DNA of 64,000 nt from a virus. Positions within the stretch are counted from its first letter, which is position 1. Each line of letters begins with the position of its first letter. The position numbers were made by a program, and so were the translations under genes. The notes beneath the pieces were generated by a model, which saw nothing but the letters and a program-made list of their open reading frames with translations, did no database searches and was not told the origin of the DNA. The DNA is taken from positions 41,430-105,429 of IMG/VR virus record IMGVR_UViG_3300014257_000015; one strand, written 5' to 3'. Below, one piece after another: positions 1,198-24,535 of this stretch.

Positions 1198-2381
1198 TGG
1201 CAGTGAACTTCAAAGACGGCTACACAGTGCCATCGCACGTTCGTGAGATGTATCCTGATTTGGAGAAAAATTTGCTGCCATTGATTAAACGTCGAGCACA
1301 ACAAATGCGCCATGCCATACCCGGGATCGACGTGGAAGATGCAATACAAGAGGGGCGTCTTGCTTTGTTGTCTTGTTTGACTCGGTATGATGCTAACAAG
1401 TGTTCGTTTGATTTGAAACGCTACGTGTCCAAGACATTACGCAACACATATGCTATGATGTTGTACGAGGCGTTGGCTCAACGTCGCACTCCTCGGGCAC
1501 ACATACAAGACGGCGAAGGGAATTGGGGTGTTGCGCCGCGTGTCCCGATTAGTCTTGATGAAATGTTGACGTACGAACCTGTTGAAGGCGATCTCAGCCC
1601 CGAGGCGCGCATCATCGAGATGGAGCGATTGAGCTCATGCATTCGAATCAAAATGAAAATGATGGAGATGTTGACCGGGCGAGATCTTGATGTGTTCAAG
1701 TCGATGCTTGAAACGTCGTGCGAATTTCTGGAACCAGAAGAGATCCGACGCATCATAATCAGAGAGGAGCAAAGGAAACAGACGGGCGAACCGCTAAAGC
1801 ACGATGGGTGCTTAGCAGCAGTGGACGCGGCCGGCGGCGACGTAAATTCATTGTCCAATATTTTGGTTGCCAATTATCTCAACATCAACAAGAATATGAT
1901 TGATTGGTCCATCAACAAAATTCGCATGCTGTTCTCCAAATTGGTGAAACAAGAAGAAGTTGAAGCGCCCAATGTCTTGGAGGCGATGGAAAAGCGTGGC
2001 CTTCCAGCAATACAAGTGAATCGAGGAACGCACTTCAGCGCAAGTTTCGTTCGTTCCGTGATGACTGTGCGGAATTTGCGTGACGAAGAGCCGCACATAG
2101 AAATACAGAGCGCATCGCATCGGGGTTGCACAAATTATTGGATGCGGAGGATTGAGCGCCACACGTGGGGGGCGGTGTTGGTCCTGAAACGCGGCGGTGA
2201 ATTTGTTACCGCTGTGATTGAAGGTCGTTTGAATTTGTTGACTGGCGACGTATTCAGCCTTGAATTGGGCGGGGCGAGAGATAAACTGCCGGTTGAATGG
2301 TATCAACAGTTGTCCAGAAGATTGTCGGAGGTGTACGGTGGCCAGGAAAATACGGATGCCACATTGCGTCGGGCAGTATGA
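1194..2381 (+). CDS. RNA polymerase sigma-70 family factor (SigH/ECF-like) with C-terminal extension
   Basis: Region 2-like EDAIQEGRLALL..L.RYD...F..Y; region 4-like HTH LSNILVANYLNINKNMIDWSINKIR. Confidence 0.7.
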   Translation: MMAVNFKDGYTVPSHVREMYPDLEKNLLPLIKRRAQQMRHAIPGIDVEDAIQEGRLALLSCLTRYDANKCSFDLKRYVSKTLRNTYAMMLYEALAQRRTPRAHIQDGEGNWGVAPRVPISLDEMLTYEPVEGDLSPEARIIEMERLSSCIRIKMKMMEMLTGRDLDVFKSMLETSCEFLEPEEIRRIIIREEQRKQTGEPLKHDGCLAAVDAAGGDVNSLSNILVANYLNINKNMIDWSINKIRMLFSKLVKQEEVEAPNVLEAMEKRGLPAIQVNRGTHFSASFVRSVMTVRNLRDEEPHIEIQSASHRGCTNYWMRRIERHTWGAVLVLKRGGEFVTAVIEGRLNLLTGDVFSLELGGARDKLPVEWYQQLSRRLSEVYGGQENTDATLRRAV

Positions 2382-3225
2382 GCCGAAGAATGATGTGTGC
2401 AATGGAGATCCGTCGAAATCGAAGGATACCGAAGATGGTGTGCCGTGTTGGTGTCGCGATAGATGCATAGCACTTCGGTTGTGGTGTGGTGAGCGGGGGA
2501 AAGAACCGGATCACTTTGTTGCCTTGCAAATTGTGAAAGAAAATGGTGTAGAGATGACAGCAGCCGTGCCAAAGATGAGCAACGAGATATTCGCAAACAC
2601 GCTCGATAAAACCATTGCCAATTATGGCGTAATCAACGGACGCATCACCAGACCAAACAAGGGCGGTGCACCAAAGAAGAAAATACAAGCACCCGCGCCA
2701 ACCAGAGGGAAACCTGGCCCGAAGAAGGGGAAGCGGCCTTGTGTTGAGGCAAGAGTGAAATCGCGCCGGGCAGTAATAGCACGTGCGAAAGCTCGACGAG
2801 AAGAGTGCAAGTTGTTGTTCGGCCATTTCAAGAAACATCTGGAGGTGGCCTTGCATGGACAGAAGTGGAGTGCTAGAAATTCAGCTATTGCTGCTGATAG
2901 GCTGTACATTAAAGACAGGTTTGACAATTCCGGCTACGCTACGGTGTATTGCAAAACGAGGATAGGGCGGGATACGCCAGTGGTGACAGCAAGGCTGAAA
3001 ACGGCGACGTTGACCTTGATGATAGGGTTGCCGGTGACTTTAGAACAGCTGGAATCACAGATAGGAAAGGCCACGTGCAAAAAGCTATCCCCATACAGAA
3101 TATTGGACGGATATTTCATCACAGCCGTGAACAACGTCGACAAAGAGCGTGCTGCTTTGATCGCAGAGACTATCGGCCGACTGGTGAAATCAGGTATTAT
3201 AAATTTGCCTGCCGCCGCGCAATGA
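2260..3225 (+). CDS. Hypothetical basic protein with N-terminal Cys cluster (true start probably near 2356)
   Basis: 321-aa ORF between the sigma-like gene and the hairpin; C..C..CWC.DRC cluster; Lys/Arg-rich middle. Confidence 0.6.
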   Translation: MNWAGREINCRLNGINSCPEDCRRCTVARKIRMPHCVGQYEPKNDVCNGDPSKSKDTEDGVPCWCRDRCIALRLWCGERGKEPDHFVALQIVKENGVEMTAAVPKMSNEIFANTLDKTIANYGVINGRITRPNKGGAPKKKIQAPAPTRGKPGPKKGKRPCVEARVKSRRAVIARAKARREECKLLFGHFKKHLEVALHGQKWSARNSAIAADRLYIKDRFDNSGYATVYCKTRIGRDTPVVTARLKTATLTLMIGLPVTLEQLESQIGKATCKKLSPYRILDGYFITAVNNVDKERAALIAETIGRLVKSGIINLPAAAQ

Positions 3226-3241
3226 CGCTGCAGAGCGGGCA

Positions 3242-3295
3242 GGGGCGAGCGATTGGATTCTTGGGCCTTGGCCGGTTCTCTCCAACGCTCGCCCC
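3242..3295 (+). ncRNA. Intergenic stem-loop whose loop is antisense to the shared translation-start motif (candidate regulatory sRNA)
   Basis: Arms GGGGCGAGCG(A)TTGGA 3242-3257 and TCCAACGCTCGCCCC 3281-3295; 23-nt loop contains TGGCCGGTTCTC (3269-3280), the reverse complement of GAGAACCGGCCA. Confidence 0.55.
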
Positions 3296-3313
3296 GATCC
3301 ATCGAGCAAATCC

Positions 3314-4276
3314 ATGAGAAAACGTGTTGTGATAGTTGGGGGTGGAGTCTCAGGGCTCATAGCATCGTATGTGTTCAGCGGAATCCCCGGTGTAGAAACA
3401 AGAGTATTTGAAGAGAAAACAACCGGCGGCGAATTTCTAGCTGGCGGCTTGAAGTACATCCACCACACAGAAGCAATGGTGGATATGTTTGATGAGCTAG
3501 GCCTGTGTCACTCAAATTTCATGGTGAATGGTGGCATATTGTTGAGCGACGTTGTTCAGCCGTACCCAAAGTGCTTCCAAGACATGGCACCCGAACGAGC
3601 CGCCCGCATCCAGGATGACCACTGGAGGAAGACGCGCCGATCAGAGCCGGGTTCTGATTCCAAGAAAGCAATGAATGATCCGGCGAGCACGAAGCCAAGG
3701 CAAGCCCTTCGCTGTGACTTTGTGGATATGATCAATGAGCTATCAGATTGCGCAGCGATCACCAACGCAGCCGTAGTTGAGATCAACCAAAATGATTTGC
3801 TGACCAGCCAGAAAGAACGGGTGCTGTTTGATTTCGCGGTGGTGACTTTGCCGCTGTGGGTGATTAGGGAATTGGTGAAGTGGTATGTGCCGCACGGTAT
3901 GGCTATGGCCCTCAACGTGGCAAAGGTGAATGTTCGCGGGGATCGCTTTGCGCGCTGGGATTACGTCTACACGCCCTACACGCCGTCCAATTGTGTCCAT
4001 CGATTTTCACCGGTGGCAGGCGGATATTCGGTTGAGACGAATGGTGAATTGAATCTTGGTGAAATCGAGTCTGACTTGAATTTCCTTTGGCCTGAAGGTT
4101 GGGCAATGATGGAACTGAAAGAGGGGCTAAAGGGCCACCTGCTTTCATTGGACACTAAGCCTGATTGGCCGCGTAACATAGCACCAATCGGAAGGTTTGC
4201 AAAATGGGACAGCCGGGCAACCATCGATGTAGCGTTGGAAGACTCGATAGCGTTAGCCAAGAGGTGGCTTGGATGA
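3314..4276 (+). CDS. FAD-dependent oxidoreductase (Rossmann fold, UGM/PPO-like superfamily)
   Basis: N-terminal VVIVGGGVSG...VFEE...GG dinucleotide-binding motif; C-terminal IGRFAKW. Confidence 0.75.
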   Translation: MRKRVVIVGGGVSGLIASYVFSGIPGVETRVFEEKTTGGEFLAGGLKYIHHTEAMVDMFDELGLCHSNFMVNGGILLSDVVQPYPKCFQDMAPERAARIQDDHWRKTRRSEPGSDSKKAMNDPASTKPRQALRCDFVDMINELSDCAAITNAAVVEINQNDLLTSQKERVLFDFAVVTLPLWVIRELVKWYVPHGMAMALNVAKVNVRGDRFARWDYVYTPYTPSNCVHRFSPVAGGYSVETNGELNLGEIESDLNFLWPEGWAMMELKEGLKGHLLSLDTKPDWPRNIAPIGRFAKWDSRATIDVALEDSIALAKRWLG

Positions 4277-5220
4277 ATCTTTGGTCAGAGATGTGGGAAA
4301 GGCAGAAGAAGCAACAGGAGCACTTCAACCTCGACCCCAAAGCGATGTCACCAATCGTGAAGGCTGGTGTTGCGAAGGATTTGACGCTGGGATTGCTTGA
4401 AGAGGCGGGGGAGCTTTCGAGGGCTGTGGCTCGATTCAAGGCACACCTTTTGAAAGACAGGCCTGTGGACAAGATCAATGTCTGCGAAGCTTCGGTTGAT
4501 GTGCTGAAATATCTGATAGCGATTGCGCAATTATATGGCGTCTCGTCTGAAGAGATGTTCAACACTTTCATGCGAAAAAGCGACGTTGTTGATGACAAGG
4601 CGCGTTGCGAACGGGTGGAACTGGAGCGCCACACCAAGCTGATTGTGAGTGATCTGGATGGTTGCATTGCAGACCTATCTTCGTGGCAGGACGAAATGGA
4701 TCGACAGCGCGGGAACGCTCCGATGAATGATGCCACATTGGCGATGCTCGAAAAATTGAAAGAGGAGTTTTACAGATGCGGCGGGTTTTTGAATTTGCCG
4801 CCGATACCTGGAGCAATCGAAGCAACCAAGAAGATACGTGAAGCAGGATACAAACTGGCCATCATCACAGCCAGGCCAGACTGGCAATACAAAAGAGTGT
4901 ACGCTGATACAATCCAGTGGCTTCAGAAACACGACATACAATATGATTTGATTTTGTTTCAGAAGGACAAGGCAGAAGCCGTGGTGGATCACATCTTTCC
5001 GGCGCGCCCTCTGTGTTTCGTTGAAGATAGGAGTAAACACGCCATCGAGGTCGCTAGCATTGGTGTGCAAGTGTTGTTTCTGACTTCTGGCAAAAGCGAA
5101 TTGGCGCCTCACCCTTTGATTCAGCGAGTTCAAGGCTGGGGTGAAATCGTCGAGTACATCAATGCAACACAAGATGGGAGAAGTGAATATGGGACACCCA
5201 CATTTGATGGGAACAGTTGA
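4273..5220 (+). CDS. MazG-like NTP pyrophosphatase fused to HAD-family (NT5C-like) nucleotidase
   Basis: MazG EEAGEL...EASVDVL; HAD motif I DLDGCIAD, motif II IITAR, K, motif IV VED. Confidence 0.8.
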   Translation: MNLWSEMWERQKKQQEHFNLDPKAMSPIVKAGVAKDLTLGLLEEAGELSRAVARFKAHLLKDRPVDKINVCEASVDVLKYLIAIAQLYGVSSEEMFNTFMRKSDVVDDKARCERVELERHTKLIVSDLDGCIADLSSWQDEMDRQRGNAPMNDATLAMLEKLKEEFYRCGGFLNLPPIPGAIEATKKIREAGYKLAIITARPDWQYKRVYADTIQWLQKHDIQYDLILFQKDKAEAVVDHIFPARPLCFVEDRSKHAIEVASIGVQVLFLTSGKSELAPHPLIQRVQGWGEIVEYINATQDGRSEYGTPTFDGNS

Positions 5221-6355
5221 GTACAGGCCGGTAACGTTTAGCAGCGGGAATGGCCCTTGGCTGTATGTTTATCATGATGGAGAAACAAAGACAGATTATC
5301 TGGACTTTTTCTGTGATGTCGGAACGTCCAGCCTTGGTTACGGCGGGAAAGAACAACAGGATGTCATTTCCAGGATGTATCATTTGCCTGCTCACGCGCC
5401 GAACATATTTGGCTTCGATGAGCGAGACCGAGCGGCACGGCGCCTTTGTGAAATGACGCAAATGGATCGCGTGTTCTTTTGCAATAGCGGAGCAGAATCA
5501 GTTGAGGCGGCAATCAAACTGGCGCGGCTTTGGTCGTACAAGAAAGGCTGTGGCGCTGATCACATCTACAGTTATGTCGGCGGATTCCATGGGCGGACAT
5601 ACGGGGCGTTGTCCGCCGGTGACGGCGCGCCATATCACTACGAAGGTTTCGGCAAGATGTTGGACGGGGTGTTTCACTTCAAAGAAGCATGGGAAATCAC
5701 AGACCCCGAAACTTGCGCCATCATTCTCGCCCCCTGCTTCGGCAACAACGACATTCGAGAGTACCCGGATGGTTGGTTGAAAGATCTCAGAGAATTCTGT
5801 GACAACAACGGGATTCTACTGATCTTTGATGAGGTGCAAACAGGCTCGGGGCGCACCGGCATGATGACGTACGCGCAACGATGCGGCGTGAAGCCAGACA
5901 TTATGACGTTGGCGAAGGGCATTGGGATGGGTGCCCCTGTAGGTGCCATGTTGGCGTCGGCTGACATCGCCGAAGTGTTCACGCCAGGAACGCATTTCAG
6001 CACATTCGGCGGGAATCCGTTGTCTTGTGCCTTCGTGAATGGGATGTTGGACTGGTTGGAACGTCCTGGAAATCTGGAGTCTGTGAATCGAAAGGGCGAG
6101 TTCATAAAAGAAACATTGCAACGATTCGGATGGGCAAAGAACATTCGCGGCCCAGGAATGCTGATTGGATTTGATATCGACATTGACACATCTGAATTCG
6201 CGGCCCGCTGCTTAGAAAATCAGTTGCTCATCGGGGCCTTTAGAAAGGGGCCTGGGGCTGTAAAAATCAGCCCGCCGCTGAACATCGAAAAAGAAGACAT
6301 CATCAAGGGATTGACCATATTGGATGAATCCTACAAGGAGCTGATCAATGGCTGA
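5189..6355 (+). CDS. Class III PLP-dependent aminotransferase (ArgD/acetylornithine aminotransferase-like)
   Basis: NSGAES, GFHGRT, IFDEVQTG.GRTG, PDIMTLAKG (PLP lysine), HFSTFGGNP; GGGAG RBS before ATG 5189. Confidence 0.9.
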   Translation: MGHPHLMGTVEYRPVTFSSGNGPWLYVYHDGETKTDYLDFFCDVGTSSLGYGGKEQQDVISRMYHLPAHAPNIFGFDERDRAARRLCEMTQMDRVFFCNSGAESVEAAIKLARLWSYKKGCGADHIYSYVGGFHGRTYGALSAGDGAPYHYEGFGKMLDGVFHFKEAWEITDPETCAIILAPCFGNNDIREYPDGWLKDLREFCDNNGILLIFDEVQTGSGRTGMMTYAQRCGVKPDIMTLAKGIGMGAPVGAMLASADIAEVFTPGTHFSTFGGNPLSCAFVNGMLDWLERPGNLESVNRKGEFIKETLQRFGWAKNIRGPGMLIGFDIDIDTSEFAARCLENQLLIGAFRKGPGAVKISPPLNIEKEDIIKGLTILDESYKELING

Positions 6356-7295
6356 GCCGAAAGTCACATTGCTGACTTGGACGAAAGACCCGTTGGAAAC
6401 TGTGTACTCTGTATGGTGGCAGTCGAAGAACGAAAAACCGTTGATGACACCGGATGAGGTGAAAGAAAATGTCCCGCCGTCTGAGGTCGAAGAGCTATTC
6501 AAAGCGGTAATAGCACAACGAATCCCTGTTGGAGAACACCTGGATTTCGTGTTTGTTATGGAGAACGTTTCTGTGTCTTGGCGTGAGCAGGCCGTTCGCC
6601 ACCGCATCGGGGTGAAAGTAGGCGGCGAACGTTTAGGGGTGGACGTAATACCGAACCTGGCTGATTCAAGCTGGTGGTCACAATCCATGCGCATCCAGAA
6701 TATGGGAAGTTTCTTCAGCAACGGCGCATACAGGATGCCAAAATCATTGGATGCTCACCCGGAAGCTAAAGCTGTTTTTTGCGACATCATGTGTGACATC
6801 GAGGCTGCGTACAATAATCTGATTGACATGGGTGTGCCGATGGAAGACGCCAGAGAGGTTATCCCACTCGGCGCGCAACATCGGATCAGCTGGAAGCTTA
6901 ACATAGGCGCTCTCCAGCACATCATGGAAAAGAGAGGTTGCTGGATACTGCAACTTGGAACGTGGGGGCCGATCATTACCGGGATGGTGGATGAGTTGGC
7001 CAACAAGGTTCACCCTGTGTTTCGCGAATTGGTGACGCCGCCTTGCATCCGAGGGGATAAATTCAACTCGTGTGTGTTCATGGAAGAGTGTCGCCGCCGT
7101 TTGACAGGTGATGATGAATTGCCACCGTGCCCACTCCACTACAACTACCACGTTCTGCCTGAATCGCAACGTGGAATGATTCCGCTGTTGGTCAAGAAAT
7201 TGGAAATCCCGATGAAGTCGGAGATGATGCGACGGTCGGAAGATTATGCGAATTTTTGGGGCCGAGATCCGTTCACAGGTGAAAAAATTGTGTGA
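6348..7295 (+). CDS. Divergent flavin-dependent thymidylate synthase (ThyX)-like protein
   Basis: EH..F.F....VS...REQ.VRHR, SQSMR, G.PMEDAREVIP; insertion within the RHR..S motif and a Cys-rich C-terminus. Confidence 0.75.
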   Translation: MAEPKVTLLTWTKDPLETVYSVWWQSKNEKPLMTPDEVKENVPPSEVEELFKAVIAQRIPVGEHLDFVFVMENVSVSWREQAVRHRIGVKVGGERLGVDVIPNLADSSWWSQSMRIQNMGSFFSNGAYRMPKSLDAHPEAKAVFCDIMCDIEAAYNNLIDMGVPMEDAREVIPLGAQHRISWKLNIGALQHIMEKRGCWILQLGTWGPIITGMVDELANKVHPVFRELVTPPCIRGDKFNSCVFMEECRRRLTGDDELPPCPLHYNYHVLPESQRGMIPLLVKKLEIPMKSEMMRRSEDYANFWGRDPFTGEKIV

Positions 7296-7872
7296 CAAGA
7301 TAATCGTGTTGGACGGGGTGAATGGGACAGGGAAATCAACGAGCGCAAAAGTTCTGCGCGAATTGACAGGGTGGCCCATCATACGGGCGTTTCGTGATGA
7401 CTCTGATTCACATCTAGGATACAACGCGCCTATGGAGGGAGAACTCAAAAAACTCGGCGTTCCTGTGAACACATACGTTGATGACTTGTACGTTGCTGAT
7501 TTTTTGCGCGCAACACGGCGAGGAGCGATATTGGATAGATCGATGCCATCGGCATTGGCATATCCGATGATGCGCGGCGAAGAGATAACACCAAAGACAG
7601 CAAAAAAATTGGTTGTTGTTTGGGAGCAGATTCTGCGCGCTGCGAAGATACCTGTGGTTTATGTTTGGATGCAAGCATCGCACGAAGTGGTGAAAGAGCG
7701 TTGTGTTGGACGGTGGCATCCAAACAAAGCACAATACGCCAAATTGGAATCGACTTTCAAGAGAGTTTTCGTGACGTTGTCGCTGTGCAAAAGAAGAGTG
7801 GTGACCACAGAGCTTAGTGAAAACGAAACGATCAAAACCGTTCGCCAGGTGGTGGATGATGCCGACGATTGA
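7279..7872 (+). CDS. dNMP (thymidylate-type) kinase
   Basis: IIVLDGVNGTGKST P-loop; ILDR motif; start approximate. Confidence 0.8.
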   Translation: MKKLCDKIIVLDGVNGTGKSTSAKVLRELTGWPIIRAFRDDSDSHLGYNAPMEGELKKLGVPVNTYVDDLYVADFLRATRRGAILDRSMPSALAYPMMRGEEITPKTAKKLVVVWEQILRAAKIPVVYVWMQASHEVVKERCVGRWHPNKAQYAKLESTFKRVFVTLSLCKRRVVTTELSENETIKTVRQVVDDADD

Positions 7873-8191
7873 TGAAATCAGAGTTTGGTTGAGTGGCCAA
7901 GAGATCGAAGGATTGCCCGCTTTGCGTGAGCGTGAGCGTGAGCCAGAAGCGAAACATCCGCCGAAGGCAATGAAAACGCCTGCCGATATGCGCAACCAAG
8001 GGAGATATCGGCTGCACCGTGATGACTCCGGTCACGTCATCGATGCCACTTTGTATTTTGGAAAGTACAATGGGTTCTGCCTAAGTAAACTTTCAACCAA
8101 TAGAGAAGGGAAGGACTACCTGTCATGGATGTTGAAACAGGACTTCCCTGGTGAATTGGTGGAGTTGATCACCAGTATGGGATGGGCGTGA
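7856..8191 (+). CDS. Small protein with FGKYxG...YL.W domain (ExoX C-terminal/DUF3820-like)
   Basis: LYFGKYNG...YLSWML. Confidence 0.55.
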   Translation: MMPTIDEIRVWLSGQEIEGLPALREREREPEAKHPPKAMKTPADMRNQGRYRLHRDDSGHVIDATLYFGKYNGFCLSKLSTNREGKDYLSWMLKQDFPGELVELITSMGWA

Positions 8192-11100
8192 TGGAAGACT
8201 TTGTAGGGTTGCACAACCATTCGGATGCTAGCCAACTAGACGGTGCTGGGAAAATATCCGAATACATCAAGGCCGTAGTCGAACGCAAGGCGCCTTCAAT
8301 CGCTTTCACCGAACACGGGACAATGCGCGGGTACCAGACGCAATATGATCAATGCAAAGAACACAACATCAAGCCAATTTATGGGATTGAATTCTATGTG
8401 GCCAATGACATGCGTCGAAAGGGCCTAACCGAAGACGAGCGCGCGGACATCACGAAAGGCAAACCTCGAAGCGAGCACAAAGATGCCATCAAGAAGTATG
8501 AAGAGCAACACGGCATCCGAGACAGATGGCATTTGACGTGCTGGGCGAAGAACGCAGAGGGAATGCGGAATATGATGCGCTTGGCGTCGCTTGCATACAC
8601 CGAGGGGTTCTACTACAAGCCGCGCATTGACTTGAACGAACTGTACAAGTACAAAGAGGGGTTGGTGGTGGCGACGGGATGTTGTTCCAGCGTCATCTAT
8701 GACAGGGCCGTGTTGGGGAAAAAGAAGCTTGCATTAGAAATTGCCGATGAGATGCGTGAACAATTTGGGGAAGATTTGTGGATTGAGATACAACCGCACG
8801 CAATCGAAGAGCAGGTGATCTCCAACCAGTTGGCACTGGAATTGAAGGATAGGTGGGGGAAGAAGGCGCGCCTGCTTGCAACGCAAGACGCACATTATGT
8901 CAGGCCGGAAGATTGGGAAACGCATGAAGTGATGCTCTGTATCGGAACCAATGATGTGATGAGCAACCCCGAGCGTTTTCGTTTCACCGGGAATGATTTT
9001 CATTTCAAAACCCGAAAGGAAATGTTTGCGAAGTTCAGATCAACACACGCTTACTTGACCAGAGAGCAAGTCAAAGAATCTTTGGACAACACGTTGGTGT
9101 TCATGGACACAATATCTGATGGCCTGGTTACCATCGATAAAGACAAGTGTCTCATGCCACCAATACCGGTTCCTGAGAAGTATGACGGCAATGAGTTCGC
9201 ATACTTGAAGGATTTGTGTTTGCGCGGTTGGGCATGGCGTGACATACCGGCCCGCGCCACTCTGTTGTCAAAGCGCGAGGGCGGCGACGAAGCAGAATGG
9301 CTGAAACGATACGTGGCAAGGTTGAAAAGAGAACTGACAGCAATCAAAAGCCAAAAGTTTGTTTCATATTTCCTTCTTGTTCACGATTTATACAATTGGG
9401 TGCGCCAGCAGGAAATCATGTGTGGGCCTGGACGAGGCTCAGCGGCGGGTTCGCTCGTTGCATACCTGACCGGCATCACATCGGTTGATCCGATAGAGCA
9501 CAATCTGTTGTTCGAACGATTCATAAGCCCAACGCGTGTCGACCAGCCCGATATTGATATGGACTTTGAGGATCGGCGCCGACAAGAGATCATCGAGTAT
9601 CTGCGAAACAAATACGGCAATGATAAGGTGTGTCAGATTGCCACCGTAGGCAAGCTTTCGGGGAAGGCTGTAATCAGAGACATATCGCGTGTTCTTGAAG
9701 TGCCGTATGCAGCAGTAAACCAAGTCACCAATTCCATCATCGAAAGAAGCAGCGGCGACGAGCGGGCCAGCCAGACGGTTGAGGACTCTTTCAAAGAATT
9801 CAAGGTGTGTCGCGAATTCAACGCCAAATACCCGGATGTTCTGAGATATGCGAAGAAGCTCGAAGGAATGGCCAAGACGCTTGGAATACACGCAGCAGGC
9901 GTCGTGACTTCTCCTGAACCGTTGATGAATCTTGTCCCATTGGAGACGAGAAAGCATGATGGCCGTGACGTTGTGGTGAGCGCCATCGATATGTACGGGG
10001 TGGCAGCGTGTGGGTTGCTGAAATTGGACGTTCTTGGGCTGCGAACGCTGAGTGTCATTCGTGAATGTCTAGAAGCAGTTGAACAACACACTGGTGAAAA
10101 GATCGACCTCGAACGCATTGATTTGAATTTGAAAGACGTTCTTCAAGGATTCACAGATCACGATTATTGTGGCGTGTTTCAGTATGATTCCCCGGGTGCC
10201 GACAAGATTTGCACAGGCGTTGAGTTCAAACACTTCGAGGACATCGCTGCCATGACAGCGTTGAATCGACCGGGCACCGCGCGAAGCGGCCTAGCCACGC
10301 AATATGTGGCACGAAAGCGCAACCCGAAATTGGTTGAAAAGGCATCGTTTCACCCAGCGGTGAGTGAAATCACGAAAGACACATTGGGAATCATCGTGTA
10401 TCAAGAGCACGTGATGCGTATTTTCACCGACATAGCCGGGTTTGCCCCAGCAACGGCGGACAGCTTGCGCAAGAAAATAGCCAAAAAATTTGGCGATGAG
10501 ACGATTGGAAAAGAACGCGAGAATTTCATTAAGGGTGCGATGGAAAATTGGGGTGACCGAGGGATGACCAAAGAGATCGCAGGAAAGATAATGGATGCGA
10601 TCACGTTCTTTGGATGTATACCTGGTGAATCGTTGGTTTTAGTGGTCGAGGGAAGTGATGAAGACTTGTGCGCATTGCGAGAGGAAAGTGTTGGCAAGGG
10701 GATTGTGCTCAATACACTACCAGAGGGAATACAGGAAGGAAAGAACGGTGATCGGGAATCCTGTGAGTTCAGAGCACAACAAGATAGGGGTGCTTGGGCG
10801 CGGGTGGAAGTCAGCGCCTGGGGCGAGGGTCATTGCGTCGAACAAGTTGCAATCCAAGAAGATAACAGGGGCATTAAATCCGTCTTGGAAGGGCGGACAC
10901 ATCAAAAACTTCAAACTAGCAAGGAACAGGTTGTTGAAGGAAGAGAAGGGATGTTGTCGTTGCGGCACTTCGTTGATCAAGGGATCAGGGCCGAATCAAA
11001 AGTCATTTCACATCCACCACAAGAATCGAAACAAAGCGGACAACCGAGAAGAGAACTTGGAAGTGCTGTGTCAAAGTTGCCACAGCAAAGAACACACGAA

Positions 11101-12942
11101 AGAAAAAATTGCTGGGCGACTTGGAAAGAAATCGAAACGCTAAAGGTTGGTGATTGGATAGTGTCTTTTGATGACGACATTCGCCCCGAGCTAAATAGAG
11201 TGAAAAGAATAGAGTGCACAGGGGTGAAGCCTGTCCGCAGGATGACACTCGAACAAGGCGAAATTTGGGCGACCGGATCGCATTGGTGGATGAATAGCAC
11301 AGGGGAATATATAGAGACAAAGGATTGCACGCCTGGTACAGAATTGCGTGTTGGTGATTCGATTTTCAAGGTTCTTGGTAATCGAAAAGATGGGCGATTG
11401 AAGACTTGGGACTTGGAGTGCGAATTCGAACCTAGCAACTATGCCGTCAGATTATTCAACAGCGATTCGTGTAATTACTTGATAAGCCATAATAGTTATG
11501 GATTCAACAAGTCGCATGCCACCGCATATGGAATCATCGCGTATTGGGAAATGTTCTTGAAAATACGCCACCCGATCGAATTCTATTGGGCGCTATTGAA
11601 GAACGAACCTGACCGAATACGAATCCAACAGATCGCTAAAGATGCTAAAAAACATGGCATAGAATTGTTGCCGCCGTCGGTGGTGAATAGCGGTAAGCAT
11701 TTCACAATAGACAGAGCAAATAATGCCATTCGTGGTTCGCTCGTCGACATCAAGGGCGTAGGTGATGCTGCGTCTGAATCAATCATGGTCGCCCAACCAT
11801 ACAAGGACTTCGGTGACTTGATTCAACGCGTGGACCGCCGAAAAGTACACAAGGGTGTCATTGTGGCATTGGCGAAGGCCGGGGCGTTAGATGACGTGGT
11901 GCCGAATCCTAAGTGGCTGATAGAAAACATCGAAGATTTTTGGACAGAGTTGGGGAAGAAGGGGTGGACAGAGAAAACAGAAAGATTGTTGCGAGATTCG
12001 GCTGATGCTCCGCAGTTCACCACCGAAGAGAGGCAGGTTGTGGCCTCGAAGGTTAGTCCACTCGCATTCGGGAAACATCCGCTCGATGCGTATGCGAATT
12101 TCATGGAACGTAGTGTGAAGGTTCCCATCGCGGCAATGTCTGATGAAGACTTTTTCAAAGACAATGACAATCAAGGCGTATTCATCGCTGGCGTCGTTGT
12201 TGAGGTGAAGTACAATCAAATTGGAGATTTCAACACAGGTGAGCTTCCCAGTGAGTTGGAAAGGAAACAGATGTTCTGGGGCCGCCGTTACGCCAATGTT
12301 AATGTCGAAGATCTTGGCGGGAAACAAAATAGGATCAAAGTGGATTTTGACATCTTTGATGATTATCGAGATGTGGTTGATTCTGGAATAGGAACGCCTG
12401 TTGTTCTTCATGCTTTTGTGAACGCGAGGTTTGAGAATTTACGTTGTCATTTCATGATCAATCTGGAAGAGTACAGGCTAGCAGTCGAAGCAGGACAAGA
12501 GTTGACAGTGTGGCAAAGCATAGTCGCTGGTCGCCATCCAGCCAAAGAATATGAATGGAAAGATCCGTCAAAGTTGATCAAATACAAGACCCCAGAGGGC
12601 GAAGAGCGCGAGGTGAAAAGGCGTTCCAATGCAATCAGGAACAAAGCATTTTGGGATCGCGTATCACCTTCGTTTGTTGGCGTTGTCACGCACGTTCGGC
12701 CAAAATATGACAAGAATGGAAACCGGATGGCATTCTTGGGATTGCTGGACGGTGGTTCGCGATTCATCAGCGTGATAGCATTCGCATCCAGTTGGACAAA
12801 AGAAGTGCGACGTGTTTTGAAACCCGGGGCGTTGGTGAAAATAGAATTGGACTCCAAAAGAGACAAACGCAGTTGGTCATATTTCTACAACGGCGGAAAA
12901 CTCAGGGTTCTGAGGTCAGCGCCATCAACCACATCACCATAG
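8182..12942 (+). CDS. dnaE: DNA polymerase III alpha subunit (DnaE), intein-containing
   Basis: PHP domain (LHNHS..S.LDG, TEHG, TQDAHY), GRGSAAGSL, PDIDMDF, GIHAAGVV, KLDVLGL, YGFNKSH, C-terminal OB folds; probable start 8191. Confidence 0.97.
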   Translation: MGVMEDFVGLHNHSDASQLDGAGKISEYIKAVVERKAPSIAFTEHGTMRGYQTQYDQCKEHNIKPIYGIEFYVANDMRRKGLTEDERADITKGKPRSEHKDAIKKYEEQHGIRDRWHLTCWAKNAEGMRNMMRLASLAYTEGFYYKPRIDLNELYKYKEGLVVATGCCSSVIYDRAVLGKKKLALEIADEMREQFGEDLWIEIQPHAIEEQVISNQLALELKDRWGKKARLLATQDAHYVRPEDWETHEVMLCIGTNDVMSNPERFRFTGNDFHFKTRKEMFAKFRSTHAYLTREQVKESLDNTLVFMDTISDGLVTIDKDKCLMPPIPVPEKYDGNEFAYLKDLCLRGWAWRDIPARATLLSKREGGDEAEWLKRYVARLKRELTAIKSQKFVSYFLLVHDLYNWVRQQEIMCGPGRGSAAGSLVAYLTGITSVDPIEHNLLFERFISPTRVDQPDIDMDFEDRRRQEIIEYLRNKYGNDKVCQIATVGKLSGKAVIRDISRVLEVPYAAVNQVTNSIIERSSGDERASQTVEDSFKEFKVCREFNAKYPDVLRYAKKLEGMAKTLGIHAAGVVTSPEPLMNLVPLETRKHDGRDVVVSAIDMYGVAACGLLKLDVLGLRTLSVIRECLEAVEQHTGEKIDLERIDLNLKDVLQGFTDHDYCGVFQYDSPGADKICTGVEFKHFEDIAAMTALNRPGTARSGLATQYVARKRNPKLVEKASFHPAVSEITKDTLGIIVYQEHVMRIFTDIAGFAPATADSLRKKIAKKFGDETIGKERENFIKGAMENWGDRGMTKEIAGKIMDAITFFGCIPGESLVLVVEGSDEDLCALREESVGKGIVLNTLPEGIQEGKNGDRESCEFRAQQDRGAWARVEVSAWGEGHCVEQVAIQEDNRGIKSVLEGRTHQKLQTSKEQVVEGREGMLSLRHFVDQGIRAESKVISHPPQESKQSGQPRRELGSAVSKLPQQRTHERKNCWATWKEIETLKVGDWIVSFDDDIRPELNRVKRIECTGVKPVRRMTLEQGEIWATGSHWWMNSTGEYIETKDCTPGTELRVGDSIFKVLGNRKDGRLKTWDLECEFEPSNYAVRLFNSDSCNYLISHNSYGFNKSHATAYGIIAYWEMFLKIRHPIEFYWALLKNEPDRIRIQQIAKDAKKHGIELLPPSVVNSGKHFTIDRANNAIRGSLVDIKGVGDAASESIMVAQPYKDFGDLIQRVDRRKVHKGVIVALAKAGALDDVVPNPKWLIENIEDFWTELGKKGWTEKTERLLRDSADAPQFTTEERQVVASKVSPLAFGKHPLDAYANFMERSVKVPIAAMSDEDFFKDNDNQGVFIAGVVVEVKYNQIGDFNTGELPSELERKQMFWGRRYANVNVEDLGGKQNRIKVDFDIFDDYRDVVDSGIGTPVVLHAFVNARFENLRCHFMINLEEYRLAVEAGQELTVWQSIVAGRHPAKEYEWKDPSKLIKYKTPEGEEREVKRRSNAIRNKAFWDRVSPSFVGVVTHVRPKYDKNGNRMAFLGLLDGGSRFISVIAFASSWTKEVRRVLKPGALVKIELDSKRDKRSWSYFYNGGKLRVLRSAPSTTSP
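10615..11493 (+). mobile_element. Intein (293 aa) in DnaE, just before the YGFNKSH motif
   Basis: FFG|CIPGES.. N-terminal Cys; IETLKVGD; block B ATGSH; block F TWDLEC; ISHN|S C-terminal splice junction. Confidence 0.92.
10658..11143 (+). CDS. HNH homing endonuclease encoded in the +1 frame inside the intein
   Basis: CAHC..ARGLCSIHY Zn finger; NPSWKGG; CCRCG...HIHHKNRNKADNREENLEVLCQSCHSKEH; GAGGGA SD upstream. Confidence 0.88.
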   Translation: MKTCAHCERKVLARGLCSIHYQREYRKERTVIGNPVSSEHNKIGVLGRGWKSAPGARVIASNKLQSKKITGALNPSWKGGHIKNFKLARNRLLKEEKGCCRCGTSLIKGSGPNQKSFHIHHKNRNKADNREENLEVLCQSCHSKEHTKEKIAGRLGKKSKR

Positions 12943-15118: not shown

Positions 15119-16183
15119 GTGAAAGATTCCAAGAAAAAAGCTGGCGATAGGCCTGGCGGCGCAGATATCGCCAGCGAAGTGTTGGAATCAATCAACGATA
15201 AACTTGGTGGCAAGGACGTTGCACAGATGTTAGGTAGCGAGGGCCTTGCCATCAAGATCAGGGGTGTGATATCGACAGGCTGCGCCACCATCGACGCCGC
15301 ATCAGGACGTGGTGGCGTGCCTCTCGGTAGGTTGATAATATTGCATGGGGCTGAAGCGAGCGGAAAAACAACATTGGCACTCCAGATAGTTGCACAAGCG
15401 CAACTTCAAGGCGGTGTCGCTGTATACATGGACACAGAATATAAGTTGGATCCAGATTATGCGGCAGCCCTTGGTGTGAATACCAAGAGGATGATCAATG
15501 TCCAGCCGAGCTATCTGGAGCAGGCTTTTGCTGTCTGTGAAGGGGCGATCGAGCGCGCGGCCAAGCACAGAGAAAGCACAGGGCTATCGACGCCAATCTT
15601 GATCGTTCTCGATAGCATGAACAGCACCATTTCAAAATCACAATTCGAAGGCGAGTGGGATGATCAACATTACGCTCCTCAAGCGCGCGTATTCTCCGCG
15701 CTCCTTCCCAAGCTGATGCCTAAAGTTTCACGTGAAAATGTCTGTCTGCTGTGGGTAAGCCAAGTCAGAAAGAAAATGGGGGTGATGTATGGTGATGACG
15801 AAGAGATAGCGGGCGGAAACGCACCACGATTTTACGCCAGCCAGGTGCTGAAAGTGCGACGAATCGGAACGGTGAAAAAGGGCGAAGAAAAAGTCAAGGT
15901 GGCTAACAAAATCACAGTTGAATTCGTGAAAAATCAGGTTGCGCCACCATTCAAAAAAGCCGAGTGTGAACTTGAATACGGGAAGGGATTCAACCAGCCG
16001 CTGGCCATACTCACACAGGCTGAAAAATGGGGGATTGTTGAAAGGGATGGGAACACATACCGCTATGAAGGGAAAAAGATCGGCGGTTCCATAGCATATG
16101 CTGTAGCAAAATTGGATGATGATGATGAATTGCGTGAGAAGATCTTGTGCGCCATTCGCGACGAGGGCAAATGGAAATGGTAA
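15119..16183 (+). CDS. recA: RecA/UvsX recombinase
   Basis: GGVPLGR, GAEASGKTT, IVLDS, QVR.KMGVMYG, GGNA..FYAS, KNQVAPPFK. Confidence 0.95.
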   Translation: MKDSKKKAGDRPGGADIASEVLESINDKLGGKDVAQMLGSEGLAIKIRGVISTGCATIDAASGRGGVPLGRLIILHGAEASGKTTLALQIVAQAQLQGGVAVYMDTEYKLDPDYAAALGVNTKRMINVQPSYLEQAFAVCEGAIERAAKHRESTGLSTPILIVLDSMNSTISKSQFEGEWDDQHYAPQARVFSALLPKLMPKVSRENVCLLWVSQVRKKMGVMYGDDEEIAGGNAPRFYASQVLKVRRIGTVKKGEEKVKVANKITVEFVKNQVAPPFKKAECELEYGKGFNQPLAILTQAEKWGIVERDGNTYRYEGKKIGGSIAYAVAKLDDDDELREKILCAIRDEGKWKW

Positions 16184-16482
16184 TGAAAGCTGAAGATGTA
16201 GCAAAACTATGGCGCGAGATGCTTGAACACGAGATGAGCATCAAACCAGAAGACGAAAAGCTGGTTGCTTTTTTGTCTGCTGAATTCCTTTCAAGATGGA
16301 AGAGCACAGCGATCAAAGAGTCAGAGAATGGCGGTGATGAACTGCTCAGGTTTCATTCGTTGTACATCGAAAACAAGGGCAATGCGTTGGTTGCCATTAT
16401 TGCTTTGCTAAAGGCGATGCGCATGATTAGTGTTGGTATCGGTTGCAACTTGATGGTTGCGGAGCATCCCTGTGGAACGTAG
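16177..16482 (+). CDS. Hypothetical protein
   Basis: ORF coupled between recA and the SbcD-like gene. Confidence 0.5.
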   Translation: MVMKAEDVAKLWREMLEHEMSIKPEDEKLVAFLSAEFLSRWKSTAIKESENGGDELLRFHSLYIENKGNALVAIIALLKAMRMISVGIGCNLMVAEHPCGT

Positions 16483-17584
16483 GTATAGAGCTGCGTTCAT
16501 CGCAGACATACACGGTAGCAACAAGCTTCCATATTCCAAGCCCACAAAACAAGATCGCACCGACAGACTAGACGACCAAATAGCGCTGCTACGTCGCTTC
16601 AGAGCTTCGGCCGAAGAGTATGATGTCGATGCCATCTATGTTCTAGGCGACCTCTATGACAAGTCGCTGGTGGACCCGGTAACACTAACGCACATAGTTG
16701 AAGAGGTCGTGTCTTGGCCATTCAACACATACATCCTCCCAGGCAATCACGAAGCAAATAGTCTTCGAGGTGGACGTTTTGCTGTTGAGGCCTTTGGTGT
16801 GATGGGTCGGGATCATCTGTTTGTGATTGGCAATGATGTTGAGCCTGTGATCATTGATGATTGGTTGAATTTCTGGCCAATAGCGTTCATGCCAGTCGGG
16901 GCAACAAAGCGGCGAATCGAAGCGATACGCGGGAAAATCAACAAGAAATGCACTAATGTTCTTCTTATGCACAACAGCGTTCTGGGAGCGAATCACCAGG
17001 GCTGGACGTGTGATGACGGTCTGTTGGTAGAGGAAGTGTGCAACGGTTTCAATTGGACGTTATCAGGCCATTTCCATACACCACAGAAATTTGGTGGGAC
17101 AGGCTTGTATCTCGGCGCACCAATGCACCACCATTACGGTGATGTGGGACGAAAGGCCGGTTGGTGGATTATGGATTTCTGTGGTGGCGATCTCAAAAGG
17201 AAGTTCATCGACGGCGCTGCGCCACGATTTCACATATTGGATGGGATAGACAAAAAAACAGCATCGAAAATCAGCAAAGGTGATTATGCGCGAATTGAAA
17301 TCAACGCAACAAGCGAAGATTGGGTGAAGATGAAGCCCGAAGTCAAGGCGTATTGTGCTGCACTTGATGAAAAAGGCATCAATTCATCTTTTCGACACAT
17401 CCCGATTGCTCGTCATGGAATGCGTATGGCATCGTCGAAAACGGCGGCGATGACGCTTGACGAGGCGGTGGCCAAATACCCAGAAACAGCTAGCGTTGAA
17501 ATTGGTTCGTTGGACAAGAAAAAGTTGAAATCAATTGGGCTTGAAGCGCTTCAAGCGGCGAGAGGTGAATATGGAGTTGCTTGA
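16472..17584 (+). CDS. SbcD/Mre11-like metallophosphoesterase nuclease
   Basis: ADIH, LGDLYD, PGNHE, LMH, SGHFH motifs. Confidence 0.9.
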   Translation: MERRYRAAFIADIHGSNKLPYSKPTKQDRTDRLDDQIALLRRFRASAEEYDVDAIYVLGDLYDKSLVDPVTLTHIVEEVVSWPFNTYILPGNHEANSLRGGRFAVEAFGVMGRDHLFVIGNDVEPVIIDDWLNFWPIAFMPVGATKRRIEAIRGKINKKCTNVLLMHNSVLGANHQGWTCDDGLLVEEVCNGFNWTLSGHFHTPQKFGGTGLYLGAPMHHHYGDVGRKAGWWIMDFCGGDLKRKFIDGAAPRFHILDGIDKKTASKISKGDYARIEINATSEDWVKMKPEVKAYCAALDEKGINSSFRHIPIARHGMRMASSKTAAMTLDEAVAKYPETASVEIGSLDKKKLKSIGLEALQAARGEYGVA

Positions 17585-19463
17585 GGTGGGTGGAAAGGAT
17601 TTTGGGCCATTCAGCGAATTCTCTCTTCAATTGCACAACCAGGGGTTGGTTTGGATTGGAGGGGTGAACAATGACTCCAAGGCTGCTAAATCAAACGGCT
17701 CGGGGAAATCACACATATTCAAAGCAATCACGTGGTGTTTGTGGGGAGAAGCGATTGACAAAGAAGTAGGCGACAAGGTCATTCGCAATGGGACCAAAGA
17801 GGCGACAGTGTATGTCAAGTTGGGTGGCGGGTGGAAGGTGTGTCGTGTGCGGCGAAAAGGTTCGCCACGCCTTTCACTCATCACACCAGAAGGGGAATCT
17901 TGGAAGGCCATAGGCAAGGATGTACAAGAGAAGATCAATGAATTGGTTGGTTTAGATTTCAAGGCTTTCAAAAATACAGTCCTGTATGGTCAAAACGATT
18001 CTCTTCGTTTTGCCAATCCTTCGACACGCGACGGCGATCGCAAGGACATGCTCCATAAGATTTTGCGCACCGAGTTGTTGAAGCATTGTCACAATTGGGT
18101 TAAGGAACAATCCAAACAATTGAATGCCAAACTATCGGATGTACAATCACAATCATCGTCCGTGAAGGCGCGCCTTGAAGAGCAGGACGTTTCAGGGCTC
18201 CAGGAAGAGCACGACGAATGGGAAGAGGAACGGCAAGAAGCAATTGAAGAGCACAAAGAGTCAGCGAGACTCAAAAAGTCATTGGCTGAAGCTGAGCTGA
18301 AAAAAACGGTTGATGTCTCGAAGTTGAAATTGGAAATCAAAAAGCTTAATGCCGTCGTTGAAGAAGGTGTAGTTGCTGAAAGGGACATTGCTGCGCTGGA
18401 CAAAAAATTGGATGTTCTTAGATTCACTAGGGAAAATTGTTCCAACGAGTTGGCTAGGATGGAGACAAAGATCGAAGGAACGATTGAAAGGTTGGAACAG
18501 ATGGATGAGGATGAGTGTCCCATCTGTAGGTCTCCAATGGGCAAAGGCGTAGCTCTTCGCACAAAAAAGAACCTGGAAAAAATCAAATCCATAATCGAGA
18601 GCGAAGCAGAGGAGAAAAAGGCCAACATCGTAGGGTTGGCTGAAGACATAAGTCGTGTTGCCGAAGAGAGGAAAGCGAAGTCCAAAATTGTTTCAGCTGC
18701 CACGGATGCCTCAGGGGAGATATCTGACTTGAACGCAAAGATAATGGCAGCGACAGCAGTCAACGATCGTGTCGATGCGTACATCGCCGCCGCTCGCGAA
18801 TCTCTCAAACAAGCGAAGGCGAAAGCAGCAGAAAAAAACCCGTACGCTGCGCGCCTAGCCACAGCAGAATCCAAGGCAAAAGCATTCCAACAACGCCTAC
18901 ATGAGCTTCAGGAAAAAGAGTCAGAAATCAGCAATGAGCTCGCACACGTGAAGTTCTGGGTGAAGGGGTTTAGCGGCGCTGGGTTGCCGTCGTTCATCCT
19001 CGACAGCGTGATGCCGTACATCACCGAGCGCGCCAATCACTATCTGGGCACATTGGCGGACGGCGACATCAAACTGAATTTTGATACGCAACGTGAATTG
19101 AAGAGCAGCCGGGGCGAATACAAAGACGAGATTGAGATCAGTTGGGAAATTGAGGGGGCAAGCGACACATACCCGGCCAGCGGTGGTCAACTGAAGAAAA
19201 TCGAAATTGCCACAGATTTGGCGCTGATGGATTTGGTGGCAACTCGGGAAGGCGGCCATGTTGATCTACTGATGCTCGATGAAGTTCTGGATGGTTTGGA
19301 TGAAGAAGGCCGACAGCGTGTGCTCATGCTCCTTCAAGAATTGAGAGCCAAAAGAGGTTCGATATTTGTAATCAGCCATGAAGTTGACATGGCCGAGATA
19401 TTCGAGAAGTCTGTGATGGTGAAGAAAGATGGTGGGGCGGCCATATTGGAGTTGGCAGCATGA
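17571..19463 (+). CDS. SbcC/Rad50-like ATPase
   Basis: NGSGKS Walker A, coiled coil with CPIC zinc hook, SGGQ signature, LMLDE, ISH. Confidence 0.92.
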   Translation: MELLEVGGKDFGPFSEFSLQLHNQGLVWIGGVNNDSKAAKSNGSGKSHIFKAITWCLWGEAIDKEVGDKVIRNGTKEATVYVKLGGGWKVCRVRRKGSPRLSLITPEGESWKAIGKDVQEKINELVGLDFKAFKNTVLYGQNDSLRFANPSTRDGDRKDMLHKILRTELLKHCHNWVKEQSKQLNAKLSDVQSQSSSVKARLEEQDVSGLQEEHDEWEEERQEAIEEHKESARLKKSLAEAELKKTVDVSKLKLEIKKLNAVVEEGVVAERDIAALDKKLDVLRFTRENCSNELARMETKIEGTIERLEQMDEDECPICRSPMGKGVALRTKKNLEKIKSIIESEAEEKKANIVGLAEDISRVAEERKAKSKIVSAATDASGEISDLNAKIMAATAVNDRVDAYIAAARESLKQAKAKAAEKNPYAARLATAESKAKAFQQRLHELQEKESEISNELAHVKFWVKGFSGAGLPSFILDSVMPYITERANHYLGTLADGDIKLNFDTQRELKSSRGEYKDEIEISWEIEGASDTYPASGGQLKKIEIATDLALMDLVATREGGHVDLLMLDEVLDGLDEEGRQRVLMLLQELRAKRGSIFVISHEVDMAEIFEKSVMVKKDGGAAILELAA

Positions 19464-20193: not shown

Positions 20194-20194
20194 T

Positions 20195-24088: not shown

Positions 24089-24535
24089 ATGCGGCCATCC
24101 AAGGATGAATATTTCATGGGAATAGCCAAAGCTGTAGCGGCGAGATCAACTTGCACTCGGCGGAAGGTCGGTGCGGTTCTTGTTCGCGATGGGCTAATTG
24201 TGTCTTCAGGGTACAATGGATCCCCAGAGGGATTGGAACATTGCGTTGACGTTGGGTGCGACGTAGTGAATGGACACTGCGTAAGAACGGTTCACGCAGA
24301 AGCCAACGCGTTGATCCAGGCCGGTCAAGTTGGTGCTCGTACGAGTGGTGCGACGCTATACACTACCGCATCACCTTGTCGAGCGTGTATGTCATTGATC
24401 ATCAATGCTCGGATAGCTCGGGTGGTGTATGCTGAACCGTACCAAGATCCAACGCATGATGGAGATGAAAGCCGTTGGGCGTTGGATACAGCAGAACGCC
24501 TGGGAATCGAAATGAAATTGGTCTGTGTGGATTAA
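24089..24535 (+). CDS. dCMP deaminase
   Basis: RSTC.RRKVGA, GYNG, HAEANA, PCRAC. Confidence 0.93.
   Translation: MRPSKDEYFMGIAKAVAARSTCTRRKVGAVLVRDGLIVSSGYNGSPEGLEHCVDVGCDVVNGHCVRTVHAEANALIQAGQVGARTSGATLYTTASPCRACMSLIINARIARVVYAEPYQDPTHDGDESRWALDTAERLGIEMKLVCVD

Follow-up and report, generated by a model that had tools for sequence, protein, structure and literature searches.

A phage-specific five-gene operon upstream of dnaE that probably tailors the pyrimidine deoxynucleotide pool before replication

Five co-directional, overlapping and tightly packed genes in the genome of an uncultured virus of ~105 kb appear to constitute a phage-specific operon whose products adjust the pool of pyrimidine deoxynucleotides ahead of replication, probably for a thymidine substitute. 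The genes span positions 3314-7872 of a 64,000-nt window, i.e. bases 41,430-105,429 of the 105,429-bp IMG/VR viral record IMGVR_UViG_3300014257_000015, and all coordinates are given in the numbering of this window. The record carries direct terminal repeats and has a completeness rating of 100%, and the identical phage sequence was present as contigs in four wetland metagenome DNA runs and in no listed RNA run. We favor the reading, to which we give a probability of about 0.5, that this module makes a 5-substituted dUMP carrying an amine before replication starts, while the canonical dTTP and dUTP are purged. Several observations argue for it: the near-obligate linkage of the module genes; a rewritten aminotransferase loop, seen in 82 of 82 of the best database matches and in 0 of 38 cellular ArgDs; a ThyX homolog that keeps the mapped residues, RHR and SQSxR and has gained an insert and a four-Cys site; the same ThyX at the head of a different tailoring set in phages with a family A polymerase (PolA); and a HAD domain that is nearest to the 5'(3')-deoxyribonucleotidases. 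To judge from profile matches and gene order, all five enzymes are phage-specific variants, none of them a housekeeping equivalog, that are locked to a polymerase gene. The exact base cannot be read from the sequence.

All five genes lie on the plus strand. They encode a compact flavin adenine dinucleotide (FAD) flavoprotein of 320 amino acids (aa), in the amine oxidase / renalase / UDP-galactopyranose mutase / protoporphyrinogen oxidase (PPOX) fold class (3314..4276); a fusion of a MazG-like NTP pyrophosphohydrolase to an NT5C-type HAD 5'(3')-deoxyribonucleotidase (4273..5220); an ArgD-derived class III pyridoxal phosphate (PLP) aminotransferase with a remodeled substrate loop (5189..6355); a divergent flavin-dependent thymidylate-synthase homolog, here called Cys4-ThyX (6348..7295); and a P-loop dNK/TMK-like nucleotide kinase (7279..7872). 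A FAD oxidoreductase, a MazG-HAD fusion, a class III PLP aminotransferase, a ThyX-like protein and a dNMP kinase near dnaE had been proposed in a preliminary description of this DNA, and the presence and location of the five genes were confirmed by the open reading frame (ORF) list and profile searches. The longest ORFs of the fusion, the aminotransferase and the kinase begin at 4204, 5141 and 7246, respectively. Purine-rich Shine-Dalgarno-like runs were found before 4273, 5189 and 7279, which are likely the true gene starts; with these starts the overlaps that the preliminary description had reported are real but amount to only ~4-30 nt, not 50-80 nt. Its placement of the block just upstream of dnaE needs a small correction, since an ORF of 124 aa (7817..8191, plus strand), which also occurs in several relatives, lies between the kinase gene and that of the DnaE-type replicative polymerase (1586 aa; 8182..12942, plus strand). 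This DnaE is ~33% identical to the DnaEs of Streptomyces phages. No terminator stood out within the five-gene block, where a promoter and terminator scan gave nothing above shuffled expectation, and the tight packing of the genes without an internal predicted terminator is consistent with one operon. The minus-strand ORFs of the region had no family matches, an Rfam search of the region returned nothing, and at the nucleotide level the operon matched no cultured phage. The 88-nt gap ahead of the operon (3226-3313) folds into an extended hairpin rich in GC (-41.8 kcal/mol, z -2.4) that is not followed by a U-tract.

The Cys4-ThyX protein matched PF02511 (Thy1) with 69.1 bits (cut-off 24.8; E 5.6e-19) and fell below the cut-off of the dTMP-synthase equivalog TIGR02170 (48.7 bits against 87.9), with a match confined to residues 153-197. 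Its AlphaFold model had a pLDDT of 75, and all top Foldseek matches were ThyX structures (E ~1e-8, identity 15-18%). An alignment of 20 homologs showed conservation of RHR84-86, S111/Q112/S113/R115, E166, R169, R179 and R196. In a profile-to-PDB alignment, E166, R169, R179, N185 and R196 aligned with E144, R147, R157, N163 and R174 of TM0449 from T. maritima (numbered as chain positions minus a 12-residue tag; E144 and R174 are named in mutant structures among the matches). By this alignment, the dUMP- and FAD-contact residues that could be mapped are retained. The module protein thus resembles canonical ThyX (TM0449, M. tuberculosis ThyX) in fold and in the conservation of the residues aligned to TM0449 E144, R147 and R174, and differs from it in a split signature, in an invariant His191 that aligns with TM0449 N169, and in a four-Cys extension. 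The signature RHRx7S(x)R is not contiguous: RHR84-86 and S113-x-R115 stand 26 residues apart, compared with the canonical 7, and across relatives an insert in the signature loop, predicted to be disordered in the AlphaFold model, splits the motif by ~19-30 residues. The four Cys (C198/C233/C242/C261) lie in a C-terminal extension of ~100 residues and were invariant in 34 of the 34 distinct members collected; they are missing from one canonical phage ThyX and from the SP15-type ThyX. A Tyr-to-Ile change after SxR is not counted as an oddity of this protein, since Ile is likewise found there in Vibrio phage PVA7, whose ThyX is canonical.

The ThyX-derived UMP methylase PolB had its substrate shifted through loop insertions, and the loop insertion of the module ThyX may likewise go with a change of specificity. 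It is also known that 5-hydroxymethyl-dUMP has been trapped from ThyX reactions. At E<=1e-3 the Cys4-ThyX family comprised 407 database proteins, the top 120 of which were 57-68% identical to the query, many of them on contigs of 90-116 kb. A pattern scan of 185,579 species genomes found no relative of this ThyX, nor of the module flavoprotein, although the patterns were short and absence is not proven by it.

The aminotransferase matched PF00202 (Aminotran_3) with 252 bits (E 9.5e-75), aligned full-length with ArgD structures, and is ~37-40% identical to the ArgDs of Aquifex, Thermotoga and actinobacteria, from which it retains the PLP Lys (LAKG), DEVQTG with its Asp, the FHGRT Arg and TFGGN. 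It nevertheless lies below every NCBIfam cut-off (TIGR00707, 286.6 against 410; NF002325, 309.2 against 372) and differs from ArgD in the loop that contains the Glu gating the carboxylate-binding Arg: where ArgD has EPxQGEGG, the module protein has LAPCFGNND. An xPxxG(N/H)(N/H)D-type loop is present in each of the 82 best protein-database matches, and the next 38 matches, cellular ArgDs of 37-42% identity, all have the EPIQGEGG type; the replacement is thus clade-wide, and the variant was found in the phage module only. The loop Glu is gone, and the Arg for the carboxylate of Glu or 2-oxoglutarate is present in the window protein and in about half of the clade. The clade shows two subtypes, with Arg at the VRGxG position (loci L003-L005, L011, L014 and L017) or with Asp (xDGxGmLNAFTP; L010, L012, L013 and L016), and these suggest different amino donors or acceptors. 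Because both the ThyX and the aminotransferase fall below the NCBIfam cut-offs, neither is an equivalog of the housekeeping enzyme. The preliminary description, which had called them ThyX-like and ArgD-like and treated them as other than ordinary enzymes, is in agreement with this, and both are active-site variants.

Profile scans of viral contigs recovered 42 loci for this ThyX type and 30 for the aminotransferase, and the aminotransferase lay within ~3 kb of ThyX in 26 of the 42 ThyX loci. Among the same 42, MazG-HAD was present in ~24, the flavoprotein in ~23 (two by Pfam only) and DnaE in ~24. The arrangement is far beyond chance, as dozens of viral contigs share it although they are divergent, with ThyX identities as low as 43%, DnaE identities as low as 34% and a variable local gene order. 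In the reverse scan, all 25 loci with the non-canonical aminotransferase loop adjoin module genes (MazG-HAD, DnaE or both), ThyX of this type being adjacent in 23 of them, and the five viral aminotransferase loci with a canonical or other loop (5/5) have no module genes. It had been proposed that the aminotransferase is not an ordinary ArgD that lacks synteny in relatives, and that conservation of the neighborhood should be searched for; our results supported the former on both counts, since the gene is syntenic in distant relatives and therefore not a stray ArgD, and its loop is rewritten, and the scans showed a conserved neighborhood. In one lineage (L002:8765-10180, identical to L008:10765-12180) a gene for a 471-aa NAD-dependent epimerase/dehydratase of the short-chain dehydrogenase/reductase type stands between ThyX and the aminotransferase, and might provide an extra redox step there.

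The same four-Cys ThyX was found in a second context. In ~13 further contigs it lies directly upstream of PolA, with the genes of an HD YfbR-like 5'-deoxynucleotidase and of a radical SAM/SPASM enzyme ahead of it (L028:7886-12746 and L044:4950-13200; also L022, L026, L027, L035-L038 and L041). This group often adds a nucleoside-2-deoxyribosyltransferase-like protein, a NADAR protein and a second ThyX paralog, in which the four Cys are kept and R84, R115, E166 and R179 are lost. On the basis of gene content, Cys4-ThyX is a recurrent hub of sets made up of a nucleotidase, a tailoring enzyme and a polymerase, in which the tailoring genes are interchangeable. Combinatorial tailoring sets are also typical of the known genes for thymidine hypermodification (PMC8989533).

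Profile matches of the flavoprotein were limited to its N-terminal FAD/NAD Rossmann part (Thi4, 8e-5; PPOX-type). An AlphaFold (AF2) model built from a 17-sequence alignment reached a pLDDT of 92 and showed a two-domain FAD fold, with an N-terminal GxGxxG motif (GGGVSG) and a C-terminal GR-type FAD motif (GRFAKWD). With this model, Foldseek returned PF1083, UDP-galactopyranose mutase, L-amino-acid oxidase, renalase, NicA2, putrescine and monoamine oxidases, and PPOX (E ~1e-13, TM up to 0.74), and the language-model neighbors in the Atlas are annotated Amino_oxidase. The model therefore places the protein as a compact member of the amine-oxidase fold class. The motifs GGLKYIH, HYRKTR, AMNDP and GRFAxWDPR are common to 17 phage homologs, and a tblastn search against cultured phages gave zero matches. 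The weak PPOX match of the N-terminus raised the question of whether the genes could instead be tetrapyrrole or cobalamin auxiliary genes, i.e., a HemL-like aminomutase and a PPOX-like oxidase beside CobT, whose position two genes upstream is conserved; HemL, like the aminotransferase, belongs to class III. However, the aminotransferase scored best with ArgD families (309 bits) and HemL was not among its 25 best matches, the flavoprotein has only 320 aa and resembles PPOX in the Rossmann part alone, and the intervening genes encode nucleotide enzymes. We regard this reading as barely credible, and it was dropped.

The HAD half of the fusion matched NT5C (PF06941) with 32.4 bits (cut-off 24.8; E 1.1e-7), and the MazG half stayed just under the cut-off of PF03819 (21.0 bits against 22; 4e-4), which was exceeded in the L002 ortholog (22.2 against 22). 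The best PDB matches were the cytosolic and mitochondrial 5'(3')-deoxyribonucleotidases (cdN and mdN) for residues 158-240, with the MazG-like 2q73/YpjD matching residues 40-95, and 19 homologs retain the HAD motifs DxD (DlDg) and ED. The 5'(3')-deoxyribonucleotidases prefer dUMP and dTMP. The kinase matched Pfam dNK with 29.0 bits (cut-off 27) and PHROG 761 'thymidylate kinase' at 6e-14; its P-loop GxxGxGKS and DRxxxS are conserved in 15 homologs, no PDB sequence match was obtained, and tblastn against cultured phages was empty. A kinase of this nucleotide (dNK/TMK) type with a DR motif suggests chemistry on free nucleotides. At 24089..24535 on the plus strand, where the preliminary description had placed a dCMP deaminase, a gene of the dCMP deaminase/ComEB type was indeed found (TIGR02571, 3.7e-41), and it is the likely supplier of dUMP.

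An enzyme set of this kind could also make a product that stays outside DNA, either an analogue of a nucleotide or nucleoside that remains free or a small molecule of the polyamine type, for example an antimetabolite or a signal against the host or its defenses. ThyX homologs take part in the biosynthesis of nucleoside natural products, as the UMP C5-methylase PolB does for polyoxin; the nucleotidase domain could release a nucleoside end-product; and polyamine metabolism is a typical setting for ArgD-like enzymes and for those with the amine-oxidase fold. We consider such a product improbable, because the presence of a kinase speaks for a dNTP as the end-product and because in both phage backbones, which are unrelated to each other, the replicative polymerase (DnaE or PolA) invariably comes directly after the module.

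Based on these assignments, we hypothesize the following route for the synthesis of an amine-bearing thymidine substitute. The phage dCMP deaminase would provide dUMP, and Cys4-ThyX, with reduced FAD and methylene-tetrahydrofolate, would place a one-carbon unit on C5 of dUMP, with an outcome other than a methyl group. The flavoprotein and the ArgD-like transaminase would then install or supply the amine. In one sub-route, a 5-hydroxymethyl group would be oxidized to 5-formyl and transaminated to 5-aminomethyl-dUMP; in the other, the flavoprotein and the transaminase would make an amine to capture the exocyclic methylene that ThyX forms as an intermediate. The two sub-routes fit equally well. 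The lineage of the transaminase, which derives from enzymes interconverting aldehydes and terminal amines, and the C-N/C-C oxidizing fold class of the flavoprotein are supported by our searches. Finally, the dNK/TMK-like kinase would form the diphosphate of the product for eventual incorporation by the phage DnaE, and MazG-HAD might degrade the competing dTTP and dUTP to the nucleoside.

A search of the complete phage genome found no ThyA (PF00303), no trimeric dUTPase, no second ThyX and no canonical Tmk, and five complete relatives likewise have one ThyX each and no ThyA. This bears on the comparison with post-replicative thymidine hypermodification (phages M6, ViI, PaMx11, PhiW-14 and SH-Ab 15599), which employs a ThyA-type dUMP hydroxymethylase, 5-HMUDK and aGPT-Pplase, followed by PLP, radical SAM and FAD tailoring enzymes (PMC8989533, PMC13458397). 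Those phages resemble the module in building amine-bearing C5 substituents with PLP and flavin enzymes in combinatorial sets, and in M6 the genes gp58-gp59-gp62 bring together a thymidylate-synthase homolog and a nucleotidase near the polymerase, as in the module. However, tblastn of M6 gp51, gp52, gp53, gp54 and gp58 (queries covering aGPT-Pplase, 5-HMUDK, PLP decarboxylase, radical SAM isomerase and hydroxymethylase) against our genome gave nothing below E 0.5 at BLAST-level sensitivity. With the components of the ThyA/5-HMUDK/aGPT-Pplase route absent from the genome by profile and tblastn searches, membership in that system was rejected; the module also differs from it in having a kinase of nucleotide type, and the contrast with ThyA and base-kinase pathways that the preliminary description had drawn was borne out.

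Classical thymine-replacing phages pair a dTTPase/dUTPase or a dTMPase with a thymidylate-synthase homolog and a kinase. The module follows the same logic as SPO1 and phi-e, which contain 5-hydroxymethyl-deoxyuridine (5-hmdU), and as SP-15: a dCMP deaminase, a C5 one-carbon transferase on dUMP, a phage kinase and polymerase adjacency, together with a hydrolase that could remove dTTP, dUTP or dTMP. It differs from them in that the transferase has the ThyX fold with a four-Cys site and not the ThyA fold, and in the inclusion of a transaminase and an amine-oxidase-fold flavoprotein. In gene content, a synthase, a hydrolase and a kinase linked to a polymerase, the module corresponds to base replacement of the T4/SPO1/S-2L kind, with specificities that we infer. 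In SP-15, two Thy1-family proteins are encoded, one of which was guessed to be the hmdUMP synthase (PMC5977210), and the dihydroxypentyl-dU of this phage is made as the triphosphate before replication (work cited in PMC5977210). SP-15-type phages have extra ThyX-family proteins near HD and nucleoside-deoxyribosyltransferase genes. Among cultured phages, the lowest E-value for the module ThyX (2e-17) was obtained with the 371-aa ThyX LIS04_124 of Listeria phage LIS04 (Thornevirus SP15), whose gene (L048:8086-9201) lies near HD, nucleoside-2-deoxyribosyltransferase, macro-domain and PolA genes. SP-15 is a precedent for our reading, not proof of it, and LIS04_124 is without the four Cys.

A partial counterpart of the module was found in Pseudomonas phage 109 (PB1-like, Pbunavirus; L080:6635-14732), where genes 091/085/083/081 encode flavoprotein, ThyX, HAD and DnaE in the same order. 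The flavoprotein, a 333-aa 'polyamine oxidase', is a distant profile match (E 4e-7), and the ThyX (profile E 9e-34) has the same C-terminal extension and three of the four Cys. In contrast to the module, the PB1-like set lacks the aminotransferase, the module kinase and the MazG fusion, and its ThyX is without the loop insertion and the fourth Cys and carries RTR where the module protein has RHR. Features that set the module apart from the PB1-like arrangement are the loop insert and the fourth Cys of its ThyX, the fusion to MazG, the remodeled transaminase and a kinase of its own.

The principal competing explanation is ordinary thymidylate supply, in which ThyX would make dTMP, the kinase dTDP, MazG would act as the dUTPase, HAD as a general dNMP nucleotidase, the flavoprotein as a redox helper of ThyX, as in PB1-like phages, and the aminotransferase would be a linked auxiliary metabolic gene, e.g. 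for amino acids or polyamines, with no action on nucleotides. The following results weigh against tailoring, and most of them favor this explanation. In six complete genomes of the clade, Cys4-ThyX has no other thymidylate-synthase homolog beside it and, with its mapped dUMP- and FAD-binding residues intact, could simply be a dTMP synthase; no trimeric dUTPase was found in the complete phage genome, a role that MazG could fill. Our literature search found no report of modified DNA in PB1-like phages, and since these are treated as having ordinary DNA, a set of flavoprotein, ThyX, HAD and DnaE is possible without modification. Moreover, the canonical ThyX of Vibrio phage PVA7 adjoins a gene annotated 'phosphoheptose isomerase', which matches the same PHROG family as the window HAD and may likewise be a HAD phosphatase. 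The genome carries a UDG-superfamily glycosylase (22534-23130, plus strand; PF03167, 4.7e-28) and, in an accessory region, a C5 cytosine DNA methyltransferase (37517-38581; PF00145, 9.5e-70), as do phages with normal DNA, and the methyltransferase implies that the phage still uses conventional protection. The phage DNA was assembled from ordinary metagenome runs, and a modified base in it is so far hypothetical. The other aminotransferase subgroup has Asp in place of Arg, so that donor chemistry is not uniform across the clade, and amine-oxidase-fold enzymes rarely oxidize alcohols, which makes the step from hydroxymethyl to formyl chemically speculative. On the other hand, ordinary supply leaves unexplained the rewritten-loop transaminase that is confined to the module, the fusion of a pyrophosphatase to a nucleotidase that destroys dUMP and dTMP, and the two ThyX paralogs and radical SAM enzyme in the sister phages, and it does not sit well with a ThyX that scores under the equivalog cut-off and has a split signature loop. 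On this balance we consider ordinary supply rather unlikely, although it is the strongest of the competing explanations; the probability that is left by nucleotide tailoring, ordinary supply and a small-molecule product falls to other explanations.

To our knowledge, all characterized thymidine replacements and hypermodifications start with a ThyA-fold enzyme, and most elaborate ones are finished on the DNA polymer. Our literature search found no description of a module with ThyX, a class III aminotransferase and an amine-oxidase-fold enzyme, nor of one involving 5-formyl- or 5-aminomethyl-dUMP, and we regard the module as a probable form of phage pre-replicative base replacement that is not described in the literature found. 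In its most specific form, which we put at somewhat under even odds, the proposal is that a virus-only four-Cys ThyX, a flavoenzyme and an ArgD-type transaminase provide an undescribed pre-replicative route to an amine-bearing thymidine analogue, built at the level of the free nucleotide, that replaces thymidine in widespread ~100-kb DnaE phages, and that sister PolA phages make a different base with the same ThyX and a radical SAM enzyme. If the tailoring reading is true, entry through a ThyX fold and transamination at the nucleotide level would be new enzymology for making functionalized dNTPs in vivo; abundant uncultured phages of soil and wetland would have a new class of DNA that evades restriction and defense; and two groups would acquire a function, namely a large ThyX branch that lacks annotation and an ArgD-like clade confined to phages. 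The role of the flavoprotein and of the extended ThyX in PB1-like therapeutic phages becomes a question that can be tested in culture. Should the module instead supply dTMP in an unusual way, it would even so represent a novel form of thymidylate synthesis, in which a four-Cys ThyX has a flavoprotein of its own.

Upstream of the module, positions 7-2381 of the window encode a CobT-like VWA protein and a sigma-70 region-2 protein, and orf321 (2260..3225, plus strand) is a conserved ORF with no Pfam, PHROG or Atlas match; the order CobT, sigma, orf321 and module is kept in relatives. Downstream of DnaE, a recombination and repair set extends over 15119-22530 and includes RecA (15119-16183), an SbcD-like phosphoesterase and an SbcC/Rad50-like ATPase (16457-19463), a weak RuvC-like match (20195-20896) and a 5'-3' exonuclease (21610-22530). 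It is followed by the UDG-superfamily glycosylase already mentioned and by a NUDIX hydrolase (23131-23616, plus strand; PF00293, 1.6e-12), which by family together appear to form a context of nucleotide and DNA sanitation. An ATP-dependent DNA ligase is encoded at 51450-52409. Finally, positions 36169-36993 encode a 274-aa protein with a LacI-family/periplasmic-binding-protein-like ligand-binding domain and no evident DNA-binding domain, an unusual cargo for a phage.

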